Of a stretch of 64,000 bases of DNA, positions 1 to 30,749 are shown piece by piece (the stretch's first letter is position 1; every line of letters begins with the position of its first letter). The notes beneath the pieces are model-generated. The model made no database searches. It was given only the letters and a program-made list of their open reading frames with translations, and was not told where the DNA came from. The stretch spans positions 1,137,220 through 1,201,219 of the forward strand of contig OY970306.1 of NCBI GenBank assembly GCA_963716375.1, read 5' to 3'. Source of the stretch: an uncultured Chloroflexia bacterium (lineage in GTDB: Bacteria > Chloroflexota > Limnocylindria > Limnocylindrales > CSP1-4). The translations under genes were made by a program, and so were the position numbers.

Positions 1-1
1 G

Positions 2-178
2 GCCCACGTACTCCGCGCGGCCCAATCCGAGTACGCCAAGCTCGATCGGTCCATCTCGGCCGTCGAGCTCGCCGGCTGGCCGCCGGACGCTGTCGACGAG
101 CGAACCCGCAGGGCCACGACCCGACGCGTCGAGCGGGAGGGCCGGTCCGTGGTCACCGTGGCGCGAGCCCAGCCATGA
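2..178 (+). CDS. 3' end of eCIS AAA+ ATPase (Afp15/Pvc15-like), partial
   Basis: Frame from base 2 reads AHVLRAAQSEYAKLDRSISAVELAGW..., resembling the C-terminus of eCIS ATPases. TGA 176-178 overlaps the next ATG (ATGA). Confidence 0.7.
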   Translation, partial: AHVLRAAQSEYAKLDRSISAVELAGWPPDAVDERTRRATTRRVEREGRSVVTVARAQP

Positions 179-441
179 CGGACCTCGCCGTGTTCGTCGA
201 TCAGTGGCTCCAGCCGGCCGGCCGGGTCGACCACCAGGCGATCGCCTCGTCGATGGAGGCCGAGCTCGGCCGGCTCGTGGACGAGGGCTCGATCCGATTG
301 CCGGCCGAGCGTGCCATCGAGATCGCCAGCCTGCGGATCGATGGCGCACTGCTGCCGGTCGATCGGCTCGGCGACAGCGCGGCGATCGGTGTCGCCCTCG
401 CGCGGGCGATCGCGAGCGGCCTGCGAGGCCCGGGCCGATGA
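175..441 (+). CDS. Small hypothetical protein of the eCIS locus (88 aa)
   Basis: ATGA-coupled on both sides. The EAELGRL...IGVALARAIASGL pattern resembles small proteins found between the ATPase and DUF4157 genes of eCIS loci. Confidence 0.65.
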   Translation: MTDLAVFVDQWLQPAGRVDHQAIASSMEAELGRLVDEGSIRLPAERAIEIASLRIDGALLPVDRLGDSAAIGVALARAIASGLRGPGR

Positions 442-3400
442 CCGCGCTGATCCGCGAGCGGACGCATGCCCCGGCCGAACCGGCCGCTGCGGTTCCGGCG
501 CGGACACCCCGGAACGTCCTGGCCGCCCGGGAGGACACCGCGCGGCCGCGGGGCATCGCCCCCGCCACCCGGTCCCTGCAGACCGCGGTCGCGGACGCAC
601 CCAGGCCGATCGATGCGGGCGCGCGAGCGTTGCTCGAGCATCGCTTCGGCCAGCCGCTCGGCGGCGTCCGGATCCACACGGGTCCGTCGGCCGCAGACGT
701 CGCCCGGGAAGCCGGCGCGGAGGCCGTCACCGTCGGCAACGACGTCCTGTTCGGAGCCGGCCGCTACGACCCTGCCAGCCCGGCAGGTCTCGAGCTGCTC
801 GCGCACGAGGTCGCCCACACCGTCCAGCAGCGCAACGCGATCGGCCCGGGCGGGCCGGTGACGCAATTCGCCGGGGTGAGCGAACGCTCCAGCGCGCTCG
901 AGCGTGAGGCCGATGCCGCAGCGCGCCACGTCGTGGCCGGACCGGGCGTGGCCGGGGGAGCCGGCGCCCTCCTCGCCTCGCGGGCGACGGGCCCCGTCAT
1001 GTCCCGACGGGCCATCGCCTGGACGAACATCCCGGGCGGACCCCAGACCGCCGGCGGGATGGTCGTCGACCAGTGGGAGAAGGAAACGGACCAGATCGTC
1101 CGTTTCAAGGTGCCGACCTTGACCCTGCCCCGCGAGAAGGGACCGGTCAAGGAGGCCTACACCGCAGCGCTCAAGGCCGGCGGCGACGCGAGCGGTCTCG
1201 AGGCGACGATCGAGTTCGACGGCAAGACGGCGCGCGCCGGCCTGTGGGAATCGCGGGCGCCGACGCCCGACCTCAACCGCCGCTGGCTCGCCAAGGTCGG
1301 CTGGACGGCCGCGGACGCCAACGCCAAGTGGTTCGCGGCAGGAGGCAAGAAGGGCGCCGGATTCCCGACCGCCAATCCGGGCGTCGCCTGCAGTACCTGC
1401 GACATCGACCACATCGTGGAGCTCCAGCTGGGCGGCAGCAACTCGCCGTCCAACCTCACGCCCCTGAACTCCGCGGAGAACCAGAAGAGCGGCCGCGACA
1501 TCTGGCAGAACGTGTCCGGCATCGCCCGCGAGCTGCGCCCGATCGTGCCGGACCAGACCGGCAAGGTCAACATCATCCTCTCGTTCCAGGACGTCGACCA
1601 GGCCGGCGGCTGGGTGCCGCGTCCGGCGGGCACGCCCACGCCCGGCTGCGCCACGTGCAGCTGCAGCGACGTGGATGCGGCCGCCGTGGACGGCGCCAGG
1701 GCCGCGACGGCGGCCGCGGGCGGCACGGAGAGCTACCCGGTCGTCGCGGGCGGCCAGTCGGCGACGTTCGTCGTCCCGCCCGGCGAGGCGGACGTCGGGC
1801 TCCTCGACGACCAGGCCAACATCAACAACGCCGAAGTCATCCCGGGGATGATCCTCGAACTCCTCCAGCGGCCCAAGGCCAAGGGCCACACGGTCAAGGC
1901 GTTCATCGAATCGAAGCCCCACTTCAAGCGCGCCAAGGCGACCCGCCTGCCGCTGGCCATCCAGGGACCCCAGGAAGAGGTCGTCCTCGACGCCATCCCG
2001 GGCACGGACGGCACCCGGCGGCTGAAGATCAAGGGCAACGAGCATCCGCGCGTCAACTTCACGTACCCGTACCTCAGCGCCGGCTGGCTGAAGCTCGATC
2101 TCGGCGAGGCCGGCCTGACCGGCGACGGCCAGCTGACGCCGAGCGTGCCGTTCCTGCGCAACTCGCCGATCGACGTCCACTTCGGTGGCGGCGCCTTCAC
2201 GGGCATCCTGAAGGCCGATCCCAAGCGCCTCCAGCTGCCGATCCCGGGCTTCAAGGTCACGGCCGCGACGATCAAGGTCGACCTCGCGCCGGAGCTCGCG
2301 GTGACCGGCAATGCCGACTTCGCGCTGGGCAAGCTGATCACCGGTCACCTCGAAGCCCAGCCCTCGCTGTCGGGGATCTGGCTGAAGGGCGACCTCTTCG
2401 CCCACATCCCCCGGATCGACGAGGCCAAGGGCGAAGTCGAGTACAAGGACGGCCAGCTCAAAGGGAGCCTGACGCTCAAGGCCGAGCAGCTCGGCAACCT
2501 GCCCGGCAATCCCAGGGGCGAGCTCAAGCTCGGGATCGATTCGAAGGGCCTGACGGCCGACGGCAAGCTCTCGGTCAGCCTGCCCGGCGGCAAGCCACTG
2601 GATCTCGAGGCGAAGCGGTCGCCCGGGACCGGGATCTCCCTCAGCGGCCGGACCTCCTTCGAGATCCCGGGGCTCAGTCCGCTCGAGATCACGATCGGCT
2701 ATGACGGCGAGCATTTCAACGGCCAGGCCGCGACCGGCGTCACCTACAAGGGCCTGACCGGCAAGGTCACGATCAAGTATTACGACGGGAAGTTCTCGGG
2801 CGAGACGGACGCCACGTTCGACAAGGGCCGGCTGGCGGGCCGGGTCCACCTCGTCATCGAGTCCGATGGCAGCCTCTCGGGCGAAGGCGAGGCCACGGTC
2901 AGGATCACCAAGGATCTGAGCGGCAAGATCAGCGTCACCAAGCCCAAGGGTGGCGAGATCGGCGTCAAGGGCGAGCTCATCCTGCCCGACCCGATCACCC
3001 TCTTCCCCGAGAAGGCCGTCAAGGACACGCTCTTCTCGAAGGCCTTCAGCTTCAACATCTTCGGGCCTGTCATCCTCCAGATCCGTCCGTCGATCGGCTA
3101 CGCCGCGGGCGTCGGGCCGGGCACGATCAACAAGGCGAAGGTGGGGGCCGGCTTCAAGCCGTTCGCCGCCGAAACCGACTTCGAGCTGTGGGCGTCGGCG
3201 ACGCTCAAGGTGCCGGCCTATGCCGAGATCACGGCAGCCATCGGTCTTGGAGTCGGCCTGGGCCTCGGCGGTGCGGCGTCCGTGGCGGGCGGCATCGAGA
3301 TCGCCGGCACGCTGCGCTTCGGGACGGAGTTCTCGGCGGCCTTCGACATCCACTACAAGGACGGCGTATTCACGGCCAAGGCGCTGATCGAGGTCGGCGG

Positions 3401-3653
3401 CGGCCTGAAGATCCTGGTGGACATCAACGGCTACGTCCATGCCGAGGCGCTCGGGTTCGACCTGTACGACCACAAGTGGAACCTGAAGCACTTCGAGTTC
3501 GATACGGGCCTCTCGTTCCTCCTTGGCCTGCCGCTCGAGTACGCGTCCAACAAGCCCTTCGTCCTGCCCTCGCGCGACCAGATGACCCTCAAGGGTCCGG
3601 ACTTCTCGATCGACCAGATGACCGCGAACCTGCGGCGAACCCTCGGGATCTGA
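438..3653 (+). CDS. DUF4157 (eCIS core domain) protein with internal HNH-like nuclease motif and Gly-rich beta-strand C-terminal region; putative effector, 1071 aa
   Basis: Start ATG 438 is coupled to the upstream stop, so the ORF-track start at 204 is an over-extension. DUF4157 signature LEHRFGQPLGGVRIHT...LLAHEVAHTVQQ...LEREAD; HNH-type CSTCDIDHIVELQLGGSNSPSNLTPLNSAENQKSG. Confidence 0.85.
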   Translation: MTALIRERTHAPAEPAAAVPARTPRNVLAAREDTARPRGIAPATRSLQTAVADAPRPIDAGARALLEHRFGQPLGGVRIHTGPSAADVAREAGAEAVTVGNDVLFGAGRYDPASPAGLELLAHEVAHTVQQRNAIGPGGPVTQFAGVSERSSALEREADAAARHVVAGPGVAGGAGALLASRATGPVMSRRAIAWTNIPGGPQTAGGMVVDQWEKETDQIVRFKVPTLTLPREKGPVKEAYTAALKAGGDASGLEATIEFDGKTARAGLWESRAPTPDLNRRWLAKVGWTAADANAKWFAAGGKKGAGFPTANPGVACSTCDIDHIVELQLGGSNSPSNLTPLNSAENQKSGRDIWQNVSGIARELRPIVPDQTGKVNIILSFQDVDQAGGWVPRPAGTPTPGCATCSCSDVDAAAVDGARAATAAAGGTESYPVVAGGQSATFVVPPGEADVGLLDDQANINNAEVIPGMILELLQRPKAKGHTVKAFIESKPHFKRAKATRLPLAIQGPQEEVVLDAIPGTDGTRRLKIKGNEHPRVNFTYPYLSAGWLKLDLGEAGLTGDGQLTPSVPFLRNSPIDVHFGGGAFTGILKADPKRLQLPIPGFKVTAATIKVDLAPELAVTGNADFALGKLITGHLEAQPSLSGIWLKGDLFAHIPRIDEAKGEVEYKDGQLKGSLTLKAEQLGNLPGNPRGELKLGIDSKGLTADGKLSVSLPGGKPLDLEAKRSPGTGISLSGRTSFEIPGLSPLEITIGYDGEHFNGQAATGVTYKGLTGKVTIKYYDGKFSGETDATFDKGRLAGRVHLVIESDGSLSGEGEATVRITKDLSGKISVTKPKGGEIGVKGELILPDPITLFPEKAVKDTLFSKAFSFNIFGPVILQIRPSIGYAAGVGPGTINKAKVGAGFKPFAAETDFELWASATLKVPAYAEITAAIGLGVGLGLGGAASVAGGIEIAGTLRFGTEFSAAFDIHYKDGVFTAKALIEVGGGLKILVDINGYVHAEALGFDLYDHKWNLKHFEFDTGLSFLLGLPLEYASNKPFVLPSRDQMTLKGPDFSIDQMTANLRRTLGI

Positions 3654-3667
3654 AGGGAGGACCGGGC

Positions 3668-4309
3668 ATGCCGCTGATGAAAGGTGCGTTCATCGTCTTC
3701 GACGCCCCGGTGCCGGTGCCGACCGACATCATCATGTTCCAGTTCAACAGCGAGACCCTGGTCCGCAAGGTCGATCCGCCCAAGGAGAACACGCCGAACG
3801 CGGGCGCCGCGACCAGGGGCTCGAACGGCAATTCGCACCAGACGCGCCAGCCCACCGAGACCCTCACGGTCGGGATCGAGCTCGATGCCGCCGACCAGCT
3901 CCAGGCCGGCGACGCCCTCGCGACCAGCGTCGGCCTGCATCCGGGCCTCGCCCAGCTCGAGCTGCTGATGTACCCCTCGTCGACGCTGCTGCTCCTCAAC
4001 CAGGGGCTGGCGCTGGCCGGGATCGCCACGATCACGCCATCCAGGACCCCGCTCGTGCTCTTCGTCTGGGGCACGACGCGCGTACTCGCGGTCCACGTCA
4101 CATCGGTCCAGATCACGGAGCAGCAGTTCGACGACCGGCTGAACCCGATCGCCGCCCGGGCGGAGGTCGGCCTGACCGTCCTCAATCCCGAGGATCTGAC
4201 CGGCGCGTTCGCGACCATCGCCATGGTCACCCAGATCGCCAAGGAGGGGCTGGCCAGGGCCGGCACGGTCAGCAGCGCTCTCAACGTCAAGTCATTGCTG
4301 CCGTTCTAG
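3668..4309 (+). CDS. CIS tube-initiator-like protein (Afp7 N-terminal domain-like)
   Basis: GGAGG RBS before ATG 3668. Motifs FQFNSETL, ELDAADQL and PLVLFVWG...VTSVQITEQQFDDRLNPIAA are typical of this eCIS family. Confidence 0.75.
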   Translation: MPLMKGAFIVFDAPVPVPTDIIMFQFNSETLVRKVDPPKENTPNAGAATRGSNGNSHQTRQPTETLTVGIELDAADQLQAGDALATSVGLHPGLAQLELLMYPSSTLLLLNQGLALAGIATITPSRTPLVLFVWGTTRVLAVHVTSVQITEQQFDDRLNPIAARAEVGLTVLNPEDLTGAFATIAMVTQIAKEGLARAGTVSSALNVKSLLPF

Positions 4310-4333
4310 CCCGACGAGCGAGGAGTCGAGTCC

Positions 4334-4639
4334 ATGTTCGGTCCCGGAAGCCGGTACGCAGGCCAGCCGATCGCGGTGTACGTCGACGCCGACGGCCGGC
4401 CGCGGGCCTACGTGACCCTGCGCGAGGTGCCCGCCGCGCGCGTCGTCCGGCCCGAGGACCCGATCCACATCGTGGCCGCCAACGATCGGCTCGACCGCGT
4501 CACGTGGCAGCACCTCGGCGACCCCGAGCTGTTCTGGCGGGTCTGCGACGCGAACGGCGCGCTCCAGCCCGACGAGCTGACCTCGATCGTCGGGCGGCGG
4601 CTCGTCGTGCCGCTCGACCCGCGGGCCGGCAACGGATGA
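4334..4639 (+). CDS. LysM/tail protein X-like eCIS protein
   Basis: MF...SRY start and HIVAANDRLDRVTWQHLGDPELFWRVCDAN LysM-like motif; AGGAG RBS. Confidence 0.85.
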   Translation: MFGPGSRYAGQPIAVYVDADGRPRAYVTLREVPAARVVRPEDPIHIVAANDRLDRVTWQHLGDPELFWRVCDANGALQPDELTSIVGRRLVVPLDPRAGNG

Positions 4640-5763
4640 GCGGCGGCGTGACGATCCAGCTCTCCCTGCTGAAGGCGCCGGCGCCCGCGCCGGTGGTCAA
4701 CGCTGTCCAGGAAGTCGTCGTCGAGACCGCCCTGGACATGGCCGGCGCGTTCTCGATCCGCTTCGGGCTCGGGGCCGATGCGCTCGGCGACTACGGCCTG
4801 CTCGCCCTCGATCCGTTCAAGCCGGGCCTGCCCCTGGGGATCCGGGTGAGCACCGGCACCGTGCCCCTGCCGCTGGCCGTCATCAACGGATACGCCACGG
4901 GCCAGCGGGCGACGTGGGGCGAGGGCGGCAAGTCGGCACTGACGGTCCACGGCACGGACATCACGGGGATCATGAACCTCGAGGAGAAGGTCAAGGCCTG
5001 GTCGAGCGTGCCCGATTCGCTCATCGCCATGGCGATCTTCGCCACGTACTCGGTGATCCCGCAGGTGACGCCGACGGCGCCGCGCCTCATCGACCCGATC
5101 GGGACGGCCATCCAGCGGGGCACGGACATCCGGTTCCTGCGCCGGCTGGCGCGCCGCAACGGCTTCGATTGCTACGTCCTGCCCGAGCCGCTGACCGGCC
5201 TCGACACGGGGTACTTCTCGGCCCCGTCCACGACCGGCATGCCCCAGGCCGTCCTCAACGTGAACATGGGCTCGGCCACGAACGTGCGTGACGTCGACGC
5301 GCGCTACGACATGCTGAAGCCGACGACCGTGCTCACGGCGAACATCGACACGGCGACCAAGGCCCCCCAGCTCGGGGTCGCGCCGGCCTCGCTGCTGCCG
5401 CCGATGGGCCTCGAGCCGACGGGCCTGCGGGCCGTGGCCGGCGCGGGACTCTCGGGCGCGCTGCCGCTCGTCCGCCTCGCCGATCCCAGCAACGGCCTGA
5501 CTCCCGAGGGCCAGGCGGCCGCCCAGGGCATCGCCGACCGGTCGGGCTTCGCGGTCACGGTCGAAGGCACGACCGGTCCCGATGTGGGCGTGCTCCGGCC
5601 GGGCGGGCTCGTCGCCCTGCGCGGTGTCGGGCGGCTGTTCAACGGCCTCTACCAGGTGACGCGCGTCCGGATGACCCTCGCCGAAGGCCGCTTCGAGCAG
5701 CGCTTCTCCGCCCGCCGGAACGCCGTGACGATGACCGGCGCCGAACCCTTCGTGACGCTGTAG
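4636..5763 (+). CDS. Baseplate hub, phage late control D / gp27-like (VgrG N-terminal half)
   Basis: ATGA coupling at 4636. Motifs QRGTDIRFLRRLARRNGFDCY and VLRPGGLVALRGVGRLFNGLYQVTRVR. Confidence 0.85.
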   Translation: MSGGVTIQLSLLKAPAPAPVVNAVQEVVVETALDMAGAFSIRFGLGADALGDYGLLALDPFKPGLPLGIRVSTGTVPLPLAVINGYATGQRATWGEGGKSALTVHGTDITGIMNLEEKVKAWSSVPDSLIAMAIFATYSVIPQVTPTAPRLIDPIGTAIQRGTDIRFLRRLARRNGFDCYVLPEPLTGLDTGYFSAPSTTGMPQAVLNVNMGSATNVRDVDARYDMLKPTTVLTANIDTATKAPQLGVAPASLLPPMGLEPTGLRAVAGAGLSGALPLVRLADPSNGLTPEGQAAAQGIADRSGFAVTVEGTTGPDVGVLRPGGLVALRGVGRLFNGLYQVTRVRMTLAEGRFEQRFSARRNAVTMTGAEPFVTL

Positions 5764-5776
5764 GGAGGCGACGACC

Positions 5777-6484
5777 GTGACCGACCTGCTCCTCGCGCAG
5801 ATGGCCGAGCGCCAGACCGACCGGTTCCTCGGCAAGTACCGGGGCCTCGTCGTGGACAACAACGACCCGCTGCTGCGCGGCCGCCTCAAGGCCATGGTGC
5901 CTGCGGTCCTCGGCGAGATCCCGTCGGGCTACGCGGAGCCGTGCGTGCCCTATGCCGGCACGACGTCCGGACTCTTCGCGATCCCGCCGATCGGGGCGGG
6001 CGTCTGGATCGAATTCGAGGCCGGCGATCCGTCGCGGCCGGTCTGGACCGGCTGCTGGTGGGCGACCGGCGAGGCGCCGATCAGCGAGATGGGCGCACCG
6101 CCGTCGCCGTTCCGCAAGATCCTGCGCAGCGAGACCGGCCTGATCGTGTCGCTGGACGACACGACGGGCACGATCACCCTCTCCGACATCGCCGGCCTGA
6201 ACATCCTGACGATCAAGGTCCTGCAGGCCACGATCCAGGTCCAGGCGCTCGGCCGGGTCGTCCTGGAGGCGCCCCTCATCCAGCACGGCCAGGCCGCCGT
6301 CCATCCGGCGGTCTTCGGCGATCAGCTGCTCGTCTACCTCGCCCAGCTCGTGACGATGTTCAACGCCCACATCCACCCGGGCGAGCTTGCCGCGGGAATC
6401 ATCCCGGTGACGCCCGCGCCACCGGTCCCGCCGATGATGCCGCCGACCCCGGCCCTCATCTCGATCAAGAACCTGGTGGAGTAG
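5777..6484 (+). CDS. Baseplate assembly protein V / gp5-like spike
   Basis: GKYRGLVVDNNDP..RGRLKA.VP, PPIGAGVWIEFEAGDPSRPVWTGC OB-fold; C-terminal FNAHIHP. Confidence 0.9.
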   Translation: MTDLLLAQMAERQTDRFLGKYRGLVVDNNDPLLRGRLKAMVPAVLGEIPSGYAEPCVPYAGTTSGLFAIPPIGAGVWIEFEAGDPSRPVWTGCWWATGEAPISEMGAPPSPFRKILRSETGLIVSLDDTTGTITLSDIAGLNILTIKVLQATIQVQALGRVVLEAPLIQHGQAAVHPAVFGDQLLVYLAQLVTMFNAHIHPGELAAGIIPVTPAPPVPPMMPPTPALISIKNLVE

Positions 6485-6487
6485 GGG

Positions 6488-6784
6488 ATGGGCAAGCTGA
6501 AAGCCGGCTCGATGGGCTCGCCGAACTCGGCCGGGACGCCGCCGGAGTTCGCGAATTCGCTCGCCGCTGCCATCGAGGATGCCTACTGGTCGGCCCTCCA
6601 GGCCGATGGCAAGGACCGGTTTGACCGGTCGTTGAACCAGGACTCCGATCGCGATCGGCGGCGGATCTTCGTCGCCATCGCGCAGGGCGTGATCGGCTAT
6701 CTCGACGCCAATGCCGACGCGTTCAAGGTCGTCGGCCCGGCCGCCATCGTGACCGGCGTCTCGATCGACGTCCAGACGTCATGA
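6488..6784 (+). CDS. Hypothetical protein (98 aa) between spike and gp25
   Basis: Fills the gap exactly, has a purine-rich RBS, and is ATGA-coupled to the gp25 gene. No PAAR motif. Confidence 0.7.
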   Translation: MGKLKAGSMGSPNSAGTPPEFANSLAAAIEDAYWSALQADGKDRFDRSLNQDSDRDRRRIFVAIAQGVIGYLDANADAFKVVGPAAIVTGVSIDVQTS

Positions 6785-7233
6785 CGAACCCGATCCTCGA
6801 CCCCGTCCTCGTCTCGACCGCCCGACCGGGCCCCCGTGCGTCGCTGACCCGGCCGGGGCCCGCGCGCCACATGGACGCCCCGTTCACGCTTGACGATCGC
6901 GGCCGGACCACCCGGGCCGACGACGATGAGCACGTCCGGGACCTGATCCGCGCCGTGCTGTTCACCGAGCCCGGCGAGCGGCCCAATCGGCCGGACTTCG
7001 GCTGCGCCCTGAAGACGATGGTCTTCCTGCCGAATTCGGACGCCCTCGCCGCCGCGATCCGGGTGCTGGTCCACGGGGCCCTCCAGCAGTGGCTGCCACT
7101 CGAGATCATCGTCGAGGCAGTCGAGGTCCAGGCCGTCGACGCGGAGCTGCGGATCGGCATCGTCTACCAGCGCCGGACCGACGGCACGCGGCATCAGGAA
7201 GTCCTCGTCCACCAGACGGGCGGCCCCGCATGA
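6781..7233 (+). CDS. GPW/gp25 family sheath-initiator baseplate protein
   Basis: HVRDLIRAVLFTEPGERPNRPDFGC signature; alternative start ATG 6871. Confidence 0.92.
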   Translation: MTNPILDPVLVSTARPGPRASLTRPGPARHMDAPFTLDDRGRTTRADDDEHVRDLIRAVLFTEPGERPNRPDFGCALKTMVFLPNSDALAAAIRVLVHGALQQWLPLEIIVEAVEVQAVDAELRIGIVYQRRTDGTRHQEVLVHQTGGPA

Positions 7234-9920
7234 CGGCGCCGGCCATGACCTACCTCGCGGGAACCCTGCGCTGCGACGATCTCGCCCAGCGGCGGGCGGA
7301 CCTGCTGGCGCACCCGAACCCGGCCCTGAACGGCATCGACTTCGTCGAGATCGACCCGGCCGACCACCACAAGCTCCGAATCGTGTTCCTGCGACCGGTG
7401 CCGGCCGGCGGCTACGGCTTCGTCCTGCACCCCGAACGGATCTCGATCACCGGCGGCGTCCGGATCATCGGCGTCCAGGTCACGAGCGCGGTCGTCGCCC
7501 CGCCCAAGGCCATCGACATCGTCACCAGTGTCGGCGGCGATCACTCGCCGTACGTCCTGACGCTGAGCCATCCCGATCTCGATCCGCCGCTCTCGCAGCT
7601 GCCGATCTCGTTCACGGCCACCTGCCCGACGGACGTCGACTGCGGCCCGGACTGCACCTGCGTCCCGGAGCCGGTCGACGAGCCGCTGATCGACTACCTC
7701 GCCCGCGATTACTCGAGCTTCCGGCGGCTGCTGACGGACGTGGCGGCCACCCGGCACGGTGCCTACAGCGACGGCAATGCGGCCGATCTTGCCGAATTGC
7801 TGATCGAGCTGTTCTCGTACACCGGCGATCAGCTGGCGTACTTCCAGGACGCCATCGGCACCGAGGCGTTCCTCGACACGGCCCGCCAGCGGCGATCGAT
7901 CCGGCGCCACGCCCGTCTCGTCGACTATCGGGTCCACGAGGGCCGGAACGCCTGGACCTGGCTGTCGGTGTCGGTCAGCCTGGACGGGACGATCCCGCGC
8001 GGTACGCCCGTCCTGACCCGGATCGGGCGGCCACTCTCGCCCGGAGGCCCGGTCCCGGGCACCGTGATCCCGGATTCGTGGCTCGATCCGATCCAGCCGG
8101 AGCTGTTCGAGCGCAACCCGGCCCTCGACGACGTGATCGTCTTCGAGACCGCCCACGACCTTGCCTGCGCCAGCGTCAACGACGAGATCCAGATCCATAC
8201 CTGGGGCAACGAGAACTGCTTCCTGGCGCGCGGTGCGACGGAGGCCTACCTGTTTTCGGTTGCCGGCGGCACGGCGTCCCGGCCCGTGTTGCACGACGGC
8301 GACTTCCTGGCGTTCGAAGAGGTTCGTGGACCGACCGGCCGCGGCTATCCCGCGGACGCCGATCGAGGGCACCGGACGGTCGTCCGAATCGAGGGCGAGC
8401 CCGAGCCGACGACCGACCTGCTCTACAGCCGGACGCTCGTGTCCGCCGTCGATCCCGTCAGCGGCATCGCCCAGTGGGAGCTCCAGCGCTGGACGGCCGG
8501 CGCGGCCCTGCCACTCCTCAAGGTCCGCTGGGCAAGGGCCGACGCCCTGCCGCTGCCGTTCTGCCTGTCGGCCACGACGGAGGACGAGCGTCGCCTCCAA
8601 TCGATCTCCGTTGGTCGCGGCAACGTTGTGCTGGTCGATCACGGCCGAACGGTCTCGGAAACGGTCGAACCGGTCGTCGCCGGCCGGGTTCCGATCGAGC
8701 TGCGGCTGACCCGCGGGCCGCTGACCCAGCAGGCCCCGGCCACGGACGACCGCTGGTTCGCGACGCGTCCGTTGACGGCCGCTCGACGATCTCTCGTCGC
8801 CGAGGCTGGGGCGACCGTGCCGGCGCTCGTGGTCCGGACGTTCGACGTCTCGGGCGCCCGAACGTGGACGCCGGTGCCGGACCTGCTCGACTCGACCCCC
8901 TTCGACGAGCACCTCGTGGCGGAACCCGGTGGCTCGCTGGGCGGCTCGCTGGCGGTGCCCGCCGTGGCCGATTCCGACGCCGGCGCCGGCGGCGCAGGGT
9001 TGGAGCTCGGGGCCGGAGCGATCGTGCGCTTCGGCGACGGCACGTACGGCTCGGATCCCGAGTCCGGGCGCGCCCCGGGGACCGTGGTCTACGACGCTGT
9101 GTACCGGGTCGGCAACGGCCCGGCCGGCAACATCGGGGCGGAGACGCTCGTCCACCTCGCGAGTCCGGCCGTGGCCGGCCCGTGGCCGCTCGTAACTGCC
9201 GTCCGCAACCCGCTGCCCGCGCGGGACGGGACGGCCCCCGAGTCCGTGGACGAGGTCCGGATCGCGGCACCCGTCGCGTTCAGCGTGGACCAGGTCCGCG
9301 CCGTCACCGAGGCGGATTACGCGAAGGCCGTCAGGCGCCTGCCGAGCGTCCAGAACGCGGTGGCGACCTTCCGCTGGACGGGCTCGTGGCTGACGGTCTT
9401 CGTCGCCGTCGATCCGATCGATCCGGCCGACCTGATCGACTTCGCCGACGGCCGGTCCGGCCTGTCGGCAACGCTGGAACGCCAGGTCCGCGTGCAGCTC
9501 GAGCACGTCCGGCAGGCCGGCTACGACCTCGAGATCCGGCCACCGACGTTCGTGCCCCTCGACCTCGTCATCGCGATCTGCGTCAAGGAGGGCCACTTCC
9601 GCAGCGAGGTGGTGGCGGCCGTCCGGCGCGCGATGGGCAGCGGCTGCGAGGCGGACGGGACTCCAGGGTTCTTCAATCAGCTCCGCCTGACGTTCGGCCA
9701 GACCCTCTGGCTCTCGGCCATCTACGCCGCCGTCGAAGCCGTGCCGGGCGTGGACAGCGTCGAAGTCCGCCGATTCTGCCGGCTCGGCCAGGGCGACAAC
9801 GGCGAGATCGATCGGGGCCGGATGCTCCTGGCCGCCTGGGAGATCGCCCGCTGCGACAACGACCCGGACTTCGGCGAGCACGGCGTCCTGACGATCGTCG
9901 GCCAGGGAGGCAAGGGATGA
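7230..9920 (+). CDS. Baseplate J/gp47-like wedge protein 1 (Afp11-like)
   Basis: LNGIDFVEI, IDYLARDYSSFRRLL, QDAIGTEAFLDTARQRRSIRRHARLVDY, VRFGDG, YRVGNGPAGNIG, RAVTEADY; coupled start at 7230. Confidence 0.9.
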   Translation: MTAPAMTYLAGTLRCDDLAQRRADLLAHPNPALNGIDFVEIDPADHHKLRIVFLRPVPAGGYGFVLHPERISITGGVRIIGVQVTSAVVAPPKAIDIVTSVGGDHSPYVLTLSHPDLDPPLSQLPISFTATCPTDVDCGPDCTCVPEPVDEPLIDYLARDYSSFRRLLTDVAATRHGAYSDGNAADLAELLIELFSYTGDQLAYFQDAIGTEAFLDTARQRRSIRRHARLVDYRVHEGRNAWTWLSVSVSLDGTIPRGTPVLTRIGRPLSPGGPVPGTVIPDSWLDPIQPELFERNPALDDVIVFETAHDLACASVNDEIQIHTWGNENCFLARGATEAYLFSVAGGTASRPVLHDGDFLAFEEVRGPTGRGYPADADRGHRTVVRIEGEPEPTTDLLYSRTLVSAVDPVSGIAQWELQRWTAGAALPLLKVRWARADALPLPFCLSATTEDERRLQSISVGRGNVVLVDHGRTVSETVEPVVAGRVPIELRLTRGPLTQQAPATDDRWFATRPLTAARRSLVAEAGATVPALVVRTFDVSGARTWTPVPDLLDSTPFDEHLVAEPGGSLGGSLAVPAVADSDAGAGGAGLELGAGAIVRFGDGTYGSDPESGRAPGTVVYDAVYRVGNGPAGNIGAETLVHLASPAVAGPWPLVTAVRNPLPARDGTAPESVDEVRIAAPVAFSVDQVRAVTEADYAKAVRRLPSVQNAVATFRWTGSWLTVFVAVDPIDPADLIDFADGRSGLSATLERQVRVQLEHVRQAGYDLEIRPPTFVPLDLVIAICVKEGHFRSEVVAAVRRAMGSGCEADGTPGFFNQLRLTFGQTLWLSAIYAAVEAVPGVDSVEVRRFCRLGQGDNGEIDRGRMLLAAWEIARCDNDPDFGEHGVLTIVGQGGKG

Positions 9921-12577
9921 GCCAGGCGAGCGGTCCCGGCGGATGCGGCTGTGGCGGCGGTGGCTGCGGAGCCTGCAGCGTGCCCGGCGAGGCCATCGTG
10001 CGGATCGACAATCGCCCGTCCCTGCCCGAGGTCCGCTACCGCCGCGGCACGTTCGGGACGTTCCGGCGCACGCTCCTGGATCTCACGGCCCGTGAGTCGA
10101 CCCTCGCCCGGCTCTCCACGCGCGACTCGGACGATCACGCCGTGGCGACGATCGAGCTGTGGGCCGTCGTGGCCGACGTCCTCGAGTTCTACAGCGAGCG
10201 CTACCTCAACGAGTCGTATCTCGGGACCGCCACGGAATCGCGCTCCGTCGAGCGGCTGGCCCGGCTCGTGGGCTATCGGCCGCGGCCGGGGGTGGCCGCG
10301 CTGGCCTGGCTCGCCTTCGCACTTGAAACCGACGCGGCGGCCCTCATCCCTGCGGGAGCCGCCGTCCAGAGTGTGCCGGGCGCGACCGCCGATGGTCCGC
10401 CACCGCCCCCGGTCACCTTCGAGACGCTCGATTCGCTGGCGGCGTCGGCCGTCTGGAACGCGGTTCGCGCCTACACGACGGGCCTCCCGTCGGCGTCGCC
10501 GTTCACCGCCGGCCAGCGCCGGACCGTCCTCGAGCGTGGCACGGCGCCGGCACTCGCGGGCGGCCTGAAACCCAATGACAGGGTCGTCGCCTGGAGCACC
10601 GGCGGCGTCGAGGAGAAGGTCGTCAAGGCCATCGATGCCCGCCCGGATCGCGTCGTCGTGGAGTGGTCCGATCCGGTGGCCGGAACGGCCGGCTCGACGC
10701 CGCAGGTGCGCCGGTTCACCCGGATCCTCGGCGTCTTCGGCTCCGGCGCCCCGACCAACTGGATGCAGCCGACCTCCCAGGCGAGCGCTCCCGGAGGCAT
10801 CCGCTGGGATCTCGTGAACACGCCGTTCTCGATCGCGGCCGGCGCCACCTCGCTCGATTTCGCGGGCAAGGTGGACGATCTCGACGTCGGCGGTGCGCTG
10901 CTCGTCGTCCGTCCCAGCGGCACCCCCCGGCTCGTCACGATCACGGCGATTCGGACCGCGAGCGCGTCGGTCGGGCCGCTGACCGATTCCGTCACCCGCG
11001 TTTCGGTCACGCCCTCGCTGCCCGCGATGAACCGCCGATCGGTCCGGGTCTACGTCCTGGCCGGCCCGGCGATCGGGTTCTGGGGCGGCGACTACGCGGC
11101 CAGCGGGCTGCCCACGGCCGTCTACGTGCCGGTCTTCCGCGCGCCGCTCGTCGACGGGCGGCTGGGGGTGGAGATCGGGCGCCGCATCGAAGCCGGAGCC
11201 TGGGTCGCGGGGTCGGTGGTCGACCTGCAGGACCTCGAGCCCGGCCGCGTCGTCCTTGCCACGTGGGATGGGCCGACTGCGAGTGGCGCGAAGCCCGCGC
11301 CCGTCCCGGCGCGCCTCGATGCGCGACCGGCCCTGCCGGGGTTCGATGCCGATGGATTCGGCCACCTCCGCCTCGATCTCACGTTCACGGAGCCGCCGGG
11401 TGCGGACTGGATCGCGCTCTCGTCCCTGGTCGTGCTCGGCAATGTCGTCCGCGCCAGCCACGGCGAGACCGTGTCCGAGACGCTCGGCAACGGCGACGGC
11501 ACACGCCCGTTCCAGCGCTTCGTGCTCGGCCGCAAGCCCCTGACGTACGTCCCGGCTCGGACCCCGGGCGGCATCGCCTCGACCCTCGTCGTGGCGGACG
11601 ACGGCCTGATCCGGCCCGAGGTCCCGACGCTCTTCGAACAGCCGGCCACGAGCGCGATCGTCGCCACCGCGACGGCGCCCGACGGCGTGACGCGCGTTCA
11701 ATTCGGGGATGGCCGGGCCATGGCCGCGCGGGCCACCACCGGCGTCGGCAACGTCACGGCCCGCTACCGGATCGGATCGGGGCTCGCGGGCCGCGTGCCG
11801 GCCGAGCGACTGACGACCCTGCTGACGCGGCCGCCCGGCGTGAAGGGCGTCGTCAATCCGACCGCCGCGGAAGGCGGCGCGGATCCCGAGCCCCGTGACC
11901 AGTCTCGCCGCAACGCCCCGGCCAGCGTCCGGACCCTCGGCCGGATCGTGTCCCTCCGCGACGTCGAGTCGCTCGTGCTCGCCTCGGGTCTCGTGGCCAA
12001 GGCCCAGGCCATCTGGCTGTGGAGCGGCTACGACCGGGTCATCCACCTGACGGTGGCCGCACCGGAAGGCGACCCGCTCTCGGCGACGCTGCGCGATCTC
12101 ATCGGCGATGGGCTGAACGCGGCACGCGACACGAGCCACCGCCTCGCGATCGAGGATCGGGTCCTCGTGCCGGTGACCCTCACGGCGAACGTGGTGATCG
12201 ACCGGTTCGCCGACCGGCCGGACCTCGTCCTCGCCGGCGTGCTCGCGGCAGCCCGTGGGCTGCTCTCGTTCGACAGCGTCGCACTCGGGACGTCCCTCGC
12301 CGTGTCCGACGTCATTGCCGTCCTGGCGGCCGTGCCGGGGGTGATCGGGATCGACGTCGACACGTTCGGGTTCGCGGCCGCGGCGGGCTTCAGCGGCGCG
12401 GAACTGGACGAGCGAGGCGTCGAACGGGCGCCCGACGGCAGTGTCGCGCCGGTCCAGCCGCGGCTGCGACTGTGGCCGGCTCGCGCCGGCCTGACTCCGG
12501 GCACCGTCCGGCCGGCCGAGTTGCCGTGGGTTCGGGTGACGGGCGACATCCAGATCGTGGACGGAGGCCGGGCATGA
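9917..12577 (+). CDS. Baseplate J/gp47-like wedge protein 2
   Basis: ELWAVVADVLEFYSERYLNESYLGTA...LARLVGYRPRPGVAA, GNVVRASHGET, VQFGDG, GGADPEP, RIVSLRD; coupled start at 9917. Confidence 0.9.
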   Translation: MSQASGPGGCGCGGGGCGACSVPGEAIVRIDNRPSLPEVRYRRGTFGTFRRTLLDLTARESTLARLSTRDSDDHAVATIELWAVVADVLEFYSERYLNESYLGTATESRSVERLARLVGYRPRPGVAALAWLAFALETDAAALIPAGAAVQSVPGATADGPPPPPVTFETLDSLAASAVWNAVRAYTTGLPSASPFTAGQRRTVLERGTAPALAGGLKPNDRVVAWSTGGVEEKVVKAIDARPDRVVVEWSDPVAGTAGSTPQVRRFTRILGVFGSGAPTNWMQPTSQASAPGGIRWDLVNTPFSIAAGATSLDFAGKVDDLDVGGALLVVRPSGTPRLVTITAIRTASASVGPLTDSVTRVSVTPSLPAMNRRSVRVYVLAGPAIGFWGGDYAASGLPTAVYVPVFRAPLVDGRLGVEIGRRIEAGAWVAGSVVDLQDLEPGRVVLATWDGPTASGAKPAPVPARLDARPALPGFDADGFGHLRLDLTFTEPPGADWIALSSLVVLGNVVRASHGETVSETLGNGDGTRPFQRFVLGRKPLTYVPARTPGGIASTLVVADDGLIRPEVPTLFEQPATSAIVATATAPDGVTRVQFGDGRAMAARATTGVGNVTARYRIGSGLAGRVPAERLTTLLTRPPGVKGVVNPTAAEGGADPEPRDQSRRNAPASVRTLGRIVSLRDVESLVLASGLVAKAQAIWLWSGYDRVIHLTVAAPEGDPLSATLRDLIGDGLNAARDTSHRLAIEDRVLVPVTLTANVVIDRFADRPDLVLAGVLAAARGLLSFDSVALGTSLAVSDVIAVLAAVPGVIGIDVDTFGFAAAAGFSGAELDERGVERAPDGSVAPVQPRLRLWPARAGLTPGTVRPAELPWVRVTGDIQIVDGGRA

Positions 12578-15054: not shown

Positions 15055-15098
15055 GCGCGTCGCGCCACCCGCCATGCCCACCAGCCGAGGAGCCCGCC

Positions 15099-18000: not shown

Positions 18001-18620
18001 TCGGCGTGCTCTTCCGGGGTCCCTTCGGCAATGCGGAGGCCATCGACAACGAGGTCATCGGCCGGCCCGCCAGTGACGAGTCGACGTGGATCGCGATCCG
18101 GATCGATGACCCCGAAGACAAGCCGACCGCAGTCGAGATCGGGCAGCCGGCGCAGGCGTTCGTCCCGAAGGTCATGGTCCCGAAGCCATTCGGCGAGGTT
18201 GGCGGAGGAGCGAACGCCCCCGCGGCGGCAGGCCTGGCGGGCGTCAATGCCGGCTTCGTCGCGGAGCCCCATCGGGACGTGCCGCAACTGTTCGGGGTGC
18301 TCGCGGCGGTCCGCGGCAACACCGTCGAGGGCGGCGGTCGCCAGCCGGCGGTCCTCGTCAGGGTGCGGGGCAACGCGATGTTCAACGACAACCGGGTCCG
18401 CTATCAAAACGACGAGCGCAGGATCGCGGTCGAGATCGCCGCGGTGAGCGCACTCTTGAACGCGAACTACATCGAGCTCTCGACGCCGTTCGGGCTGGCC
18501 ATCAACGCGGACGTCAATCCGAATGCCGTCGCCACCTCGGGCAACGTCACGAATGGGGTGATCGTGGTCGCCGGCTCACTGCTCGGGTCGCCGTGGGACC
18601 TCCAGAATATCTCCGCGTAG
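15099..18620 (+). CDS. DUF6519 domain protein with C-terminal right-handed beta-helix (putative fibre/tailspike)
   Basis: GAGGAG RBS, MPGDYSR..QQGRVRLDA, GRAYVDGI, GGFRGIENRLYRVEIH, WSRDDAS, YWVFAAR; then GGTICLGPG and repeated IxxN beta-helix rungs. Confidence 0.85.
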   Translation: MPGDYSRRTYNPNRDTVGVYEQQGRVRLDANLNEFVDLIDRRLRATSLDTLGPAVVPVETPDGFAIAYTAGKLTIGSGRAYVDGIEIDNHGRSLDGFVDPGFEPRLEELRGRGPIPFDRQPYVPAAPSPFAPAAPGVGTYLAYLDVFHRERTWAEDASLLDPALYGIDTATRRQAVWQVRFHDLLGGAIDCSTPDSAIPNGWSAIVRPSAARLTTNAVGVPVSTDPCDIPPAGGFRGIENRLYRVEIHDPGAFGTATFCWSRDDASLASPVTSINGATIGIVRPGRDQVVRFATGDWVEVTDDDRELSGLPGHIAKVGPVDDVKSEMDLAPALPAAFATAVNPRVRRWDQRPATIGTLPVTAAPVVLEDGVQVTFTLDPAIAGGTFRTGEYWVFAARVADGSVEQLAAAPPVGPHHHIARLAVVDGGTHTVTDCRTKWPCPCGGDGGCDCDACVTANSHNSGAFTIQDAVTQVAARGGTICLGPGIFRLRRPVEITNANAVRIRGKGWTTIVITPGRKPAFVVQGCRQITIQDLTVLGSKRQILAEEAVKGTFSMAELGGTIAIGVANTIGMTVERCILFTAPVRPDRAPTLATLGVVVGLTVRECVIVGVVGIGNPLPTVSPGKHIAGMKLTGAQSSFAGSPSAVYGVGGELGASDREQYLSGRLLMAHWNVIDNLVAAGRAGVALLGAVVAAADNRFARNDLVALIDAGIAIATISLLGTMEIDDNIVASGGFGILCGTNTARITDNTVIGFPTGRLGSLGPVITTTTTTTIFPGHVCGEDIEIVDTWVTVNGPLNPSGIRTRAGIVVVDPLGLGARLRDIRIVGNDVNDVVGLGIAALSPVRRLLIDANHVVNVVAGGIVTVSLRSESVVISANVVERVRGADIDRGKEVVGLLAGSAWTTSSASLGLGAISVLRALRADAHDNIVNQVATSGGLALGITFVGVRSGRIVSNRVQAVGDDRGAAIGVLFRGPFGNAEAIDNEVIGRPASDESTWIAIRIDDPEDKPTAVEIGQPAQAFVPKVMVPKPFGEVGGGANAPAAAGLAGVNAGFVAEPHRDVPQLFGVLAAVRGNTVEGGGRQPAVLVRVRGNAMFNDNRVRYQNDERRIAVEIAAVSALLNANYIELSTPFGLAINADVNPNAVATSGNVTNGVIVVAGSLLGSPWDLQNISA

Positions 18621-18632
18621 GGAGGCCGAGTC

Positions 18633-19106: not shown

Positions 19107-19204
19107 GCGGCTGTCGGTCCCCCGGAGCCGGCTCAACCCTGACGGAAGGACGCGTCCGATCGGCTACTCTCTCGGGGCGTCCGTCGGCCGAGGGAGCGAG
19201 TCCG

Positions 19205-30004: not shown

Positions 30005-30109
30005 CGGGGAGCCGTCGCGACCGGCTCCGCCGCTCTGACTCGGGCGAGTACCGACCCTGCCCGTCCGCTCACTCGCACTCGCGGACGGAGGGTGAGCAGG
30101 CCCACGACG

Positions 30110-30596: not shown

Positions 30597-30749
30597 CAGC
30601 GTTGTCCTCGGCCGCGTCCTGCCCGCGGGCGGCAAGGTGCGCAGGTCACGGGCCATCCCACGGCACCGGCCGACGAGGCGGTCGCGCGTCGCACCCACAA
30701 GACTGATCGGGAACGTGCCATCCTGCACAGGCGAGAGGAGGGGTAGCGG

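Follow-up and report, generated by a model that had tools for sequence, protein, structure and literature searches.

The locus described here raises the question of what a large DUF4157 protein, encoded immediately ahead of the spike and baseplate genes of a contractile injection system (CIS), contributes to the particle: a toxic payload, a structural component, or a combination of these. Among 1130 DUF4157-containing predicted toxins, 983 carry no other annotated domain (PMC11297309). The protein, P1, is encoded near the beginning of a stretch of 64,000 nucleotides of contig OY970306.1 from an uncultured Chloroflexia bacterium (hereafter, the window), in a cluster that, as known here from its genes alone, encodes a phage-tail-like CIS. 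An earlier note on this DNA had proposed a DUF4157 cargo carrying an internal, Cys-flanked HNH nuclease. The reading preferred here, which we consider probable rather than assured, is that P1 is a resident DUF4157 effector of the CIS with an internal HNH-type nuclease that would be injected and cut DNA.

Genetic Organization of the P1 Locus

P1 (P0001) is a DUF4157 protein of 1071 amino acids encoded at 438..3653 of the forward strand, with a GC3 of 0.89 and a start at 438 that agrees with the N-termini of its relatives P0002-P0007; the gene end at 1700 given in the earlier note proved wrong, the frame being open up to the TGA codon at 3651-3653. Within the window, outside which the upstream part of the CIS cluster falls, two other ORFs equal or exceed P1 in approximate size, 12019-15054 with 1011 aa and 14259-18620 with up to 1453 aa (start uncertain).

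Two genes precede P1 on the same strand: (i) a Pvc15-like AAA+ ATPase gene, represented by its 3′ end (2..178), and (ii) an 88-aa ORF (175..441). Over its first ca. 26 residues, the 2..178 frame matches the very C-terminal ends of ORFs that lie ahead of P1 relatives, e.g., 7503-9581 of locus L001 (E 9e-7) and 7375-9312 of locus L017, the latter carrying, as does 7672-9564 of locus L041, Pfam AAA plus WHD. The TGA codon of the ATPase gene overlaps the ATG of the 88-aa ORF as ATGA (175-178), the 88-aa ORF overlaps the P1 start in the same manner (438-441), and neither promoter-like nor plus-strand terminator-like sites were found in positions 1-20000 of the window. The ATPase, the 88-aa protein, P1, and the spike/baseplate genes form one operon.

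Downstream of P1, the forward strand comprises (i) g2 (3668..4309), a conserved baseplate-complex protein located directly downstream of P1 in 23 of 26 loci, with an ATG at 3668 preceded by a GGGAGG ribosome-binding site and a profile (A6) that weakly matches the SalCIS baseplate chain 9rce_H (E 0.009) and, also weakly, All3321 of the Anabaena CIS (E 0.99); (ii) g3 (4334..4639), a 101-aa baseplate-type protein, syntenic in 22 of 26 loci, that matches PHROG 7145 (baseplate wedge subunit, E 2.7e-4) and PHROG 46 (baseplate hub, E 2.1e-3); (iii) g4 (4636..5763), a VgrG-related hub or spike base, as indicated by NCBIfam VgrG_rel (E 4.4e-8, below cutoff) and the VgrG chain 9rce_F of the PDB (E 1.8e-4); (iv) g5 (5777..6484), a spike OB-fold protein (PF04717 Phage_base_V, E 1e-21); and (v) a gp25-like baseplate wedge protein (6781..7233; PF04965 GPW_gp25, E 2.9e-15). 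A 98-aa ORF (6488-6784) shows no relatives in the compared loci by blastp at 1e-5. The next gene after P1 is g2, in keeping with the earlier statement that no immunity-like gene lies directly downstream.

The P1 family comprises 597 representative clusters and its gene order is kept across about eight phyla, with 21 of 26 loci preserving the succession of all six downstream genes and two more consistent up to the contig end, and sheath, gp19 tube, Pvc16_N, and AAA+ ATPase genes lying upstream of the relatives. Loci L008, L041, and L028 come from Aquipseudomonas, Pseudogulbenkiania, and Paucibacter strains. The PF13699 match and the baseplate/spike neighbors bear out the placement of P1 as a DUF4157 protein in a CIS locus. 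A variable cargo at the 3′ end of the cluster is not what is observed, P1 being conserved and syntenic within it. The NCBIfam search returned no family for P1, and PDB sequence searches with P0001, A2, P0095, P0116, P0117, and A7 gave no meaningful relative. An Atlas search with P0003 as a stand-in for P1 returned as top match a cluster of 1193 unnamed eCIS_core proteins. The same search gave a weak lead (score 0.76) to a cluster combining eCIS_core and Ntox15.

The Small Protein Encoded Upstream of P1

The 88-aa ORF had been regarded as an orphan and as a candidate immunity protein. It instead belongs to a conserved family, aligning end to end with small ORFs directly upstream of P1 relatives (A5, 13 sequences, 20-27% identity), and the A5 HMM finds matches directly upstream of P1 in 19 of 27 P1-type loci and, in another 12 loci, ahead of other DUF4157 ORFs. 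A function as cognate immunity protein is unlikely, the same small protein preceding DUF4157 proteins that lack HNH; the A5 family occurs upstream of 10 complete DUF4157 ORFs devoid of both the HNH signature and the P1 C-terminal domain. Because it also accompanies proteins without HNH, the 88-aa protein is considered a general partner of DUF4157 proteins. Pfam and PHROG scans gave no family match for it, and the upstream small protein does not track the type of nuclease cassette described below.

[quoted passage not shown]

The N-terminal region of P1 (residues 1-56; 438..605, +) is rich in Ala, Arg, Pro, and Thr, displays a net charge of +4, aligns poorly among relatives, and is probably disordered, as judged from its composition. 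By analogy with the N-terminal domains of Cgo1 and Cgo2, identified as loading signals in preprint 10.64898/2026.05.27.728243, we infer that it may act as a loading signal.

The DUF4157/eCIS_core domain follows (residues 57-134; 606..839, +), with the HEVAH..QQ signature and HEVAH itself at nt 804-818. PF13699 matches with an E of 2.1e-27 and 95.5 bits against a cutoff of 22, the sole P1 signature passing its curated cutoff, which agrees with the position of ca. 600-835 noted previously. A PF13699-type signature occurs once in the six-frame translation of the window, and PF13699 was matched by all 44 relatives scanned.

Across 80 sequences, no variation occurs at H80, H123, E124, H127, or Q130, and the last four of these raise the alternative that the HExxH of DUF4157 is the active part of P1, a metalloprotease in processing or toxicity, with the remainder serving as carrier. 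SalCIS cargo proteins with HEXXH motifs, which cause mild periplasmic toxicity (PMC13266070), point in the same direction. Nevertheless, the toxicity of Cgo1 is reported to be independent of its metalloprotease motifs (PMC8894135), and DUF4157 is described as dispensable for loading in preprint 10.64898/2026.05.27.728243; a protease would, moreover, leave the polymorphic nuclease slot of P1 unexplained. We give this alternative very little weight.

The HNH-Like Core

The HNH-like core comprises residues 318-352 (1389..1493, +), where the motif CSTCDIDHIVELQLGGSN..N..N is found as previously located; the CATCSC cluster of the earlier note lies at residues 404-409 (nt 1647-1664). The key positions of the core are D324 (codon 1407-1409), H325 (1410-1412), N339 (1452-1454), N348 (1479-1481), and C321 (1398-1400). 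All 132 domain copies in the alignment, contributed by 131 of 171 collected proteins, share D324, H325, N339, and N348, which are among only 17 invariant columns of an 80-sequence alignment. Translated in six frames, the window contains two instances of the pattern DH-x13-N-x8-N, versus a mean of 0.01 in 100 base shuffles. We take the SpCas9 counterparts of these four residues to be D839, H840, N854, and N863. They display the arrangement that defines an HNH site by residues, i.e., a catalytic His ending the first strand, a structural Asn, and a metal-binding Asn/His at the helix start in canonical spacing, in the register of Cas9, McrA, and PHROG 7785.

Five separate comparisons share these residues and this register, namely (i) Pfam HNH, which on an 82-aa piece reaches 20.7 bits (cutoff 21.4; E 4.7e-4) and with the whole protein as query 15.4 bits, HNH_4 and HNH_5 scoring below HNH on the same piece; (ii) Pfam HNH matches below threshold for 19 members out of 44, at E values no higher than 0.1 and 0.006 at best; (iii) PHROG 7785, an HNH endonuclease family, at the P1 motif (E 6.3e-4); (iv) an hhalign comparison with the McrA-family profile, in the correct register (P 0.0018); and (v) a domain-profile PDB search whose sole match is the Cas9 HNH domain of 8d2k_A (E 1.8), where the spacing is likewise H+14 and H+23. 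The hhalign probabilities did not exceed 1-15%, and the full-length P1 profile found no nuclease in the PDB. The proposal of an HNH nuclease is supported by the invariant catalytic positions, whereas the score of every HNH model falls below its curated cutoff.

The Cys-flanked, Zn-bound site proposed together with it is not supported. In the zinc-finger HNH subclass (CCCC/CCCH), the motif lies between two conserved pairs of Cys or Cys/His, whereas in the P1 family just C321, kept in 103 of 132 copies, and C409 (1662..1664, +) are conserved. C409 is the sole conserved Cys of the CATCSC cluster, kept in at least 90% of 80 sequences and in 33 of 39 in another alignment; at C318 most relatives have G, A, or K instead, and C404 and C407 are likewise variable. 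The HNH-type cassette is most likely a candidate ββα-metal nuclease, with a Cas9-like D-H...N...N site and without the classical four-Cys zinc site.

The Exchangeable Middle Cassette

The HNH-like core is set in an exchangeable middle cassette of ca. 290 residues (ca. residues 170-460; 945..1817, +), with approximate borders, whose N-terminal part is conserved on its own (K234, W283, W298). P0095 and P0050 are 76% identical over residues 1-166 and 52% identical over the C-terminal 631 aa, with a middle that cannot be aligned, and P0117 and P0061 show the same mosaic pattern. Both pairs support an internal rather than C-terminal position of the candidate toxin module, as the earlier note had suggested. 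The HNH motif is absent from 18 full-length members. P0117, which lacks it, carries PF13930 Endonuclea_NS_2 at the same place (29.8 against a cutoff of 27), with P0098 just below the cutoff (25.9), and hhalign places the HNH and NS2 modules in the right register with a P of only 0.012-0.027. Three other cassette types, altA, altB, and altE, are possibly PD-(D/E)xK-like, a reading taken from the alignments without profile support.

Mapped on the tree of the C-terminal domain, cassette type needs 19 changes among 133 representatives, the starred branches forcing at least 13. In AU tests, monophyly was rejected for the 18 non-HNH rows (p 7e-5), for the NS2 pair (p 1.8e-37), and for the seven altA rows (p 5.8e-5). 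These trees are FastTree and 'quick' trees, less reliable than a careful search, and the 48-row subset includes 30 HNH rows picked after the first tree was seen. The P1 cassette has been swapped repeatedly, at least 12 times, and one of the replacements is a Pfam-recognized ββα-Me nuclease. The P1 family accordingly shows the conserved carrier with modules exchanged among relatives that characterizes polymorphic toxins, but not the C-terminal location of their toxin or the cognate immunity gene behind it.

The exchange bears on a further alternative, namely that the D-H...N...N module is a metal- or protein-binding fold for the spike, the tube, or the ATPase and not a nuclease. Consistent with such a fold, every family assignment is below threshold, the four-Cys zinc site that many HNH enzymes display is absent, and no immunity gene was found at the P1 locus. 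The conserved positions and their spacing are, however, exactly the catalytic ones of HNH enzymes in the 8d2k_A alignment, and the alternative cassettes include the Pfam-recognized nuclease in addition to the three types with PD-(D/E)xK-like signatures, so that we regard a purely binding role as improbable.

The C-Terminal Domain and a Possible Structural Role

The conserved C-terminal domain (residues 481-1071, ca. 590 aa; 1878..3650, +) is shared more widely within the P1 family than any other part and contains internal Gly-rich repeats, detected by profile self-comparison at offsets of ca. 88, 145, and 210 residues (P 6e-20, 5e-11, and 7e-10). Searches of Pfam, PHROG, and the PDB gave no relative of it. 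A hydrophobic Gly/Ala-rich, glycine-zipper-like stretch (residues 925-955; 3210..3302, +) contains the top Kyte-Doolittle 19-residue window of P1 (1.69), the sole one near the membrane-helix value. The conservation and synteny of P1 also fit a structural role.

These features bring in the alternative that P1 serves mainly in the structure or assembly of the tube lumen or hub, its C-terminal repeats making it a stand-in for a tape measure or plug and the HNH-like module serving the particle or being a minor accessory. The slot of P1 just upstream of the baseplate genes resembles that of phage tape-measure genes and of tme (PMC11126660), the C-terminal domain is at once the most conserved, the most widespread, and repetitive, and no separate tape-measure candidate appeared among the neighbors scanned in L008, L017, and L041. 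Even so, no tape-measure role is assigned to one or two unannotated upstream ORFs of relatives, 5151-6029 of L017 and 5064-6344 of L041, which could still be a tape measure; no PHROG tape-measure family matched P1, and long hydrophobic or obviously helical stretches are absent bar the one borderline segment. A chiefly structural protein would also leave unexplained both the four invariant catalytic-type residues and the exchange of the cassette for one of another nuclease family, and we consider it unlikely.

A broader reading, possible but tentative, combines both roles: in one widespread CIS lineage, the tape-measure slot would be held by a non-helical Gly-rich-repeat protein with an internal nuclease cassette exchangeable by recombination, the particle being a dedicated DNA-attacking or DNA-releasing machine whose payload is a core structural part, harmless in the producer without an immunity gene and handled by the 88-aa partner and the AAA+ ATPase. 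The cassettes of such a lineage would be of the HNH type in most members and of the Endonuclea_NS_2 or possibly PD-(D/E)xK-like type in others.

Comparison with Known Systems and Proposed Mechanism

The closest parallel is Tme (BN159_7576), the tape-measure-related effector of the Streptomyces davawensis CIS, a DUF4157 protein whose gene immediately precedes baseplate genes; it co-purifies with the spike and tube initiator, and the phenotypes are driven by its nuclease domain (PMC11126660). Both proteins display an N-terminal DUF4157 domain, a gene upstream of tube-initiator/spike/baseplate genes, a nuclease of the His-Me-finger type (predicted for P1), and clusters spread over distant phyla (PMC11126660). 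Compared by description, Tme comprises 2247 aa, ca. 70% of them disordered, with predicted transmembrane helices and coiled coils, remote tape-measure homology, and a C-terminal EndA-like nuclease (PMC11126660), whereas P1 comprises 1071 aa with an internal HNH-type module and a Gly-rich-repeat C-terminus. P1 shares with Tme-like proteins the DUF4157 domain in the N-terminal region, but not the tape-measure homology with several transmembrane helices (no PHROG or Pfam hit; one borderline stretch). P1 is best viewed as a Tme-like variant of DUF4157 nuclease effectors, and such clusters may already figure in Supplementary Fig. 2 of PMC11126660; the large size, conserved gene order, and cassette exchange of the P1 family are new findings here.

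Cgo1 and Cgo2 of AlgoCIS, organized as an N-terminal domain, DUF4157, and a C-terminal domain, fill the tube lumen (PMC8894135), their loading signal being the N-terminal domain and the AAA+ protein Alg15 mediating loading (preprint 10.64898/2026.05.27.728243). They resemble P1 in the succession of an N-terminal region, DUF4157, and a larger ordered remainder, Cgo2 (ALPR1_12690) being of similar size (1228 aa; PMC8894135). Unlike P1, the cgo genes encode cargo additional to the structural genes, AlgoCIS having a separate tape measure, Alg14 (preprint 10.64898/2026.05.27.728243), and the C-terminal domain of Cgo1 is a predicted metalloprotease (PMC8894135). Sle2, another protein of the DUF4157 type, elutes together with the tube initiator (PMC13277306).

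With HNH endonucleases (PF01844, PF13395; Cas9 HNH, McrA), P1 shares the D/H-H...N...N positions, the H+14/H+23 spacing seen in 8d2k_A, and, with McrA, the GG turn as well as the second-strand N-L. It differs from them in lacking the CxxC...CxxC zinc site, in an E-L-Q that replaces the usual P-x-S after DH, and in a motif set in a ca. 290-residue module with its own conserved N-terminal part. As in DUF4157-headed polymorphic toxins (Tde with Ntox15/toxin_43, PMC4436062; EATs, Geller 2021, PMC8213781), a conserved head is combined with a variable toxic module, often a nuclease. In the known examples, the variable module is C-terminal and the immunity gene usually comes next, whereas in P1 it is internal, a conserved C-terminal domain follows, and no co-located immunity gene was seen.

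For P1 as a nuclease effector, the analogy with Tme, Cgo1/Cgo2, and Sle2 suggests that the AAA+ ATPase encoded next door, aided by the 88-aa protein, would load P1 into the tube lumen, that P1 would be tied to the tube-initiator/spike complex, and that sheath contraction would expel it. The HNH module might then cut DNA in the target cell, or in sibling cells as for Tme. By the same analogy, a cognate immunity gene would be unneeded because the enzyme would be sequestered or unfolded in the producer.

Implications for DUF4157 Payloads

DUF4157 proteins are the commonest predicted CIS payloads, and most have no assigned activity. The P1 family, with its 597 representative clusters, would give many of them a testable activity, that of an HNH-type nuclease. 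It further shows that the variable toxic module of such proteins can be internal, with natural domain-exchange borders at about residues 170 and 460 that are useful for payload engineering, and a conserved small partner protein of DUF4157 proteins is identified. The idea put forward for Tme, a nuclease effector in the tape-measure slot, is extended by the P1 family to a second, much larger architecture.

Gene and domain architecture of P1

P1 (P0001), the DUF4157 protein of the window, is encoded on the forward strand at 438..3653 by a frame that runs from the ATG at 438 to the TGA at 3651-3653 and comprises 1071 aa; the start agrees with the earlier note, but the end proposed there, at 1700, cuts the protein at residue 421. 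The DUF4157 domain claimed in that note corresponds to PF13699 (eCIS_core, the current Pfam name), which covers residues 57-134 (E 2.1e-27; 95.5 bits versus a cutoff of 22), and its motif positions are correct, with CSTCDIDHIVELQLGGSN..N..N at residues 318-352 (nt 1389-1493) and CATCSC at residues 404-409. The six-frame translation of the whole window discloses no second DUF4157 signature besides P1.

The eCIS_core domain is preceded by an Ala/Arg/Pro/Thr-rich segment (residues 1-56, net charge +4), and residues 481-1071 comprise internal repeats with offsets of ~88, ~145, and ~210 residues (P down to 6e-20), for which no relative was found in Pfam, PHROG or PDB. The sole hydrophobic stretch of P1, Gly/Ala-rich and spanning residues 925-955, lies inside the C-terminal domain, which may tether P1 to the tube-initiator/spike complex or else act at the target membrane. 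Most relatives display a LQRxCACG...C..C Cys motif N-terminal to DUF4157 (P0008-P0012; consensus of the family alignments A2 and A3), absent from P1 and its six closest relatives. The family member P0158, with 2254 aa, is twice the usual length and contains two DUF4157 stretches, the family C-terminal domain being located at 1717-2245.

Conserved position within a CIS cluster

P1 is flanked by genes of a contractile injection system (CIS). Upstream, the window opens in the 3′-terminal part of an AAA+ ATPase gene (+), whose stop overlaps the start of an 88-aa ORF (175-441, +) as ATGA, and the stop of this ORF overlaps the P1 start in the same manner. Downstream, a conserved gene of the baseplate complex starts at ATG 3668 behind a GGGAGG and is followed by genes for a 101-aa baseplate-type protein, a VgrG-related protein, and a Phage_base_V spike, then by a 98-aa ORF (6488-6784, +) and a gp25 gene; in keeping with the earlier note, no immunity gene is adjacent to P1 on this side, the baseplate-complex gene at 3668 coming next. 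Neither promoter-like sites nor plus-strand terminator-like sites were found in 1-20000. The cluster extends to ~18.6 kb, its structural part closed by a DUF6519 protein (14259-18620, +), followed by a 157-aa ORF (18633-19106, +). No match in Pfam, NCBIfam or PHROG was found for either the 98-aa or the 157-aa ORF, nor did blastp at 1e-5 recover relatives of them among the fetched loci. Past the cluster end lie a cyclase/AAA_16/TPR protein and then dnaG and rpoD.

A DUF6519 protein also closes the structural part of the rearranged Actinomycetota locus L006 (2733-6227), and because the copy there carries a right-handed beta-helix, the protein may serve as a fibre or in receptor binding. Immediately past the cluster, the region 19205-22772 (+) encodes one protein that combines a double zinc ribbon, an adenylate/guanylate cyclase domain, and AAA_16, with TPR repeats next or fused, and its product is a possible regulator of the CIS cluster. 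Farther along, 32001-44000 shows a G+C content of 0.66-0.67 versus ~0.70-0.73 elsewhere in the window and includes two zinc-dehydrogenase ORFs, an ArsR regulator, OsmC, an SBF transporter, a sulfate permease, and a radical SAM/SPASM protein.

A word-indexed search recovered 13 near-full-length P1 relatives (25-59% identity), and exhaustive phmmer with residues 190-1071 recovered 597 representative clusters (E ≤ 1e-3), 230 of them with E ≤ 1e-30. The genome scan, in which 370 of the 603 candidate stretches were relatives, kept at least 80 loci, and gene order was compared in at least 26 loci whose match extended beyond query residue 900. Among the matches listed, all six tested downstream genes occur in the same order in 21 of 26 loci; two more (L009 and L022) are truncated at a contig end with consistent order, one (L010) ends inside the gene, and two (L006 and L079) are without the downstream genes. 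The loci belong, among the matches listed, to Acidobacteriota, Pseudomonadota, Verrucomicrobiota, Nitrospirota, Myxococcota, Actinomycetota, Armatimonadota, and Gemmatimonadota. Upstream, L008, L017, and L041 display sheath, gp19 tube, T4_baseplate-like, an unannotated ORF, Pvc16_N, and an AAA+ ATPase with a winged-helix domain, and even in the rearranged L006 the P1 relative still follows the ATPase. This gene order marks P1 as a conserved part of a CIS lineage, positioned immediately ahead of the baseplate genes.

The internal HNH-like module

The HNH reading of the earlier note gains support from invariant catalytic-type positions; P1 passes none of the curated HNH cutoffs among all models compared. 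An 82-aa piece of P1 scores 20.7 bits with Pfam HNH (cutoff 21.4; E 4.7e-4), 19.4 bits with HNH_4, and 16.8 bits with HNH_5, and whole P1 scores 15.4 bits with HNH, the only recurrent family beyond eCIS_core, sub-threshold in 19 of 44 family members. Further comparisons comprise (i) a single PHROGs match of residues 322-357 to phrog_7785 HNH endonuclease (E 6.3e-4); (ii) hhalign alignments to the single E. coli McrA sequence (E 0.045) and to a McrA-family profile built from 120 sequences (P 0.0018-0.0049, probability 7-15%), pairing DH/HH, GG/GG, and N/N; and (iii) one PDB match of the domain-profile alignment A4, to the HNH domain of Cas9 8d2k_A (E 1.8), with identical spacing of His, Asn (H+14), and Asn (H+23), the Cas9 positions corresponding to SpCas9 D839/H840, N854, and N863. 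Although each is weak by itself, these comparisons all align identical residues in an identical register.

Conservation of D324, H325, N339, and N348 is the strongest argument for the HNH reading. These residues are identical in 132 of 132 domain copies, collected with an HMM of residues 296-362 that matches 131 of 171 collected proteins, and fall within the 17 invariant columns of an 80-sequence alignment with a mean column identity of 26%. The internal HNH-type module is very probably catalytic, judging from sequence. The Zn-bound, Cys-flanked site proposed earlier does not stand, C318, C404, and C407 not being conserved; only C321 (103/132) and C409 are.

The pattern DH-x13-N-x8-N matches twice in the six-frame window versus a mean of 0.01 in 100 base shuffles. 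The second match (DHVVPRRRVGTADPSNL...) lies near 32636 in a 158-aa ORF (32304-32780, -) without Pfam match; ~1.4 kb away, the ORF 30069-30890 (-) displays a weak match to Terminase_4, the phage small terminase (E 3.5e-4), and both ORFs may represent a decayed phage HNH/terminase remnant.

An exchangeable middle cassette

[quoted passage not shown] Their middles fall into six unrelated groups (sizes 7, 4, 3, 2, 1, and 1). P0117 matches PF13930 Endonuclea_NS_2 (NS2), another ββα-metal nuclease family, with 29.8 bits, above the cutoff of 27, and P0098 scores 25.9 bits, below it, both carrying an RGH...N...N motif in the corresponding position. By-eye alignment reading discloses PDI.D...EVYDVTT or YEIKT in altA (P0080, P0095, P0105, P0115, P0130, P0138, and P0171), G.PDL...VAEIKP in altB (P0090, P0093, P0116, and P0136), and RGF[IV]D...GE[LV]KS in altE (P0119, P0134, and P0152), motifs that read like PD-(D/E)xK nuclease signatures, with no Pfam or PDB support for these cassettes.

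Cassette groups were set from the middle regions prior to tree building. In a FastTree phylogeny of the C-terminal domain of 133 representatives (950-1500 aa; fragments and the 2254-aa P0158 left out), the cassette type changes 19 times, starred branches forcing at least 13. In a 48-row IQ-TREE 'quick' tree, whose 30 HNH rows were picked after the first tree, the AU test rejects a single clade for the 18 non-HNH rows (p 7e-5), the two NS2 rows (p 1.8e-37), and the 7 altA rows (p 5.8e-5). P0095 and P0050 share 76% identity over residues 1-166 and 52% over the last 631 residues, with an unalignable middle, and P0117 versus P0061 shows a similar mosaic pattern. The exchangeable unit spans roughly residues 170-460 of P1, and the candidate toxin module is internal rather than C-terminal, as the earlier note had it.

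The small protein upstream of P1

The 88-aa ORF, formerly regarded as an orphan, aligns end-to-end with the small ORFs that immediately precede the genes of P1 relatives, and small proteins of this kind also stand before other DUF4157 genes (L039 5042-5332, L075 6022-6327, L071 8320-8583, and others). An HMM of this family, which has no Pfam counterpart, matches directly upstream in 19 of 27 P1-type loci among the matches listed, three of the remaining eight having <300 bases of upstream DNA. The HMM also matches at least 12 further loci, always just before a DUF4157 ORF; 10 of these 12 ORFs (419-1597 aa) carry neither the HNH signature nor the P1 C-terminal domain. A protein of ~85-100 aa thus precedes DUF4157 genes of several architectures, in most cases following the AAA+ ATPase gene, and is apparently an undescribed partner shared by DUF4157 proteins in general. 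The suggestion that it is a cognate immunity protein conflicts with its presence before the 10 non-HNH DUF4157 ORFs; this general association counts against cognate HNH immunity and argues for a putative chaperone or adaptor.

Comparison with known DUF4157 systems

In the portions of the literature available, DUF4157 is described as the eCIS core domain, often N-terminal to toxins and sometimes with long linkers (Geller 2021, PMC8213781), and toxin_43 DNases can bear DUF4157 heads (PMC4436062). Streptomyces davawensis Tme comprises DUF4157 and a C-terminal EndA-like nuclease and occupies the tape-measure slot, tme-like genes being defined by size, N-terminal DUF4157, and synteny (PMC11126660). 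As far as the available text of that account goes, P1 shares the DUF4157 and the synteny, but shows neither tape-measure homology nor transmembrane/coiled-coil character nor a C-terminal nuclease. Elsewhere, the AlgoCIS tube lumen is filled by Cgo1 and Cgo2 (PMC8894135), loaded via a disordered N-terminus and the AAA+ protein Alg15 (preprint 10.64898/2026.05.27.728243), and Sle2, a DUF4157 protein, co-elutes with the tube initiator (PMC13277306). No published description of a family combining DUF4157, an internal HNH, and C-terminal repeats was found in the main text of the open-access articles searched.

Overall, the feature and the core idea of the earlier note hold: P1 is a DUF4157 protein of a CIS whose HNH-type module, very probably catalytic, lies in its interior, and no immunity gene stands beside it. 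The gene limits, zinc site, and orphan immunity of that note do not hold. DUF4157 nuclease effectors are an already known kind, represented by Tme, and P1 is a candidate member, its ββα-metal fold, DNase activity, and loading all being putative. As far as the searches reach, novelty lies in the architecture, the family size, the small conserved partner, and the nuclease slot, which is internal and exchangeable.
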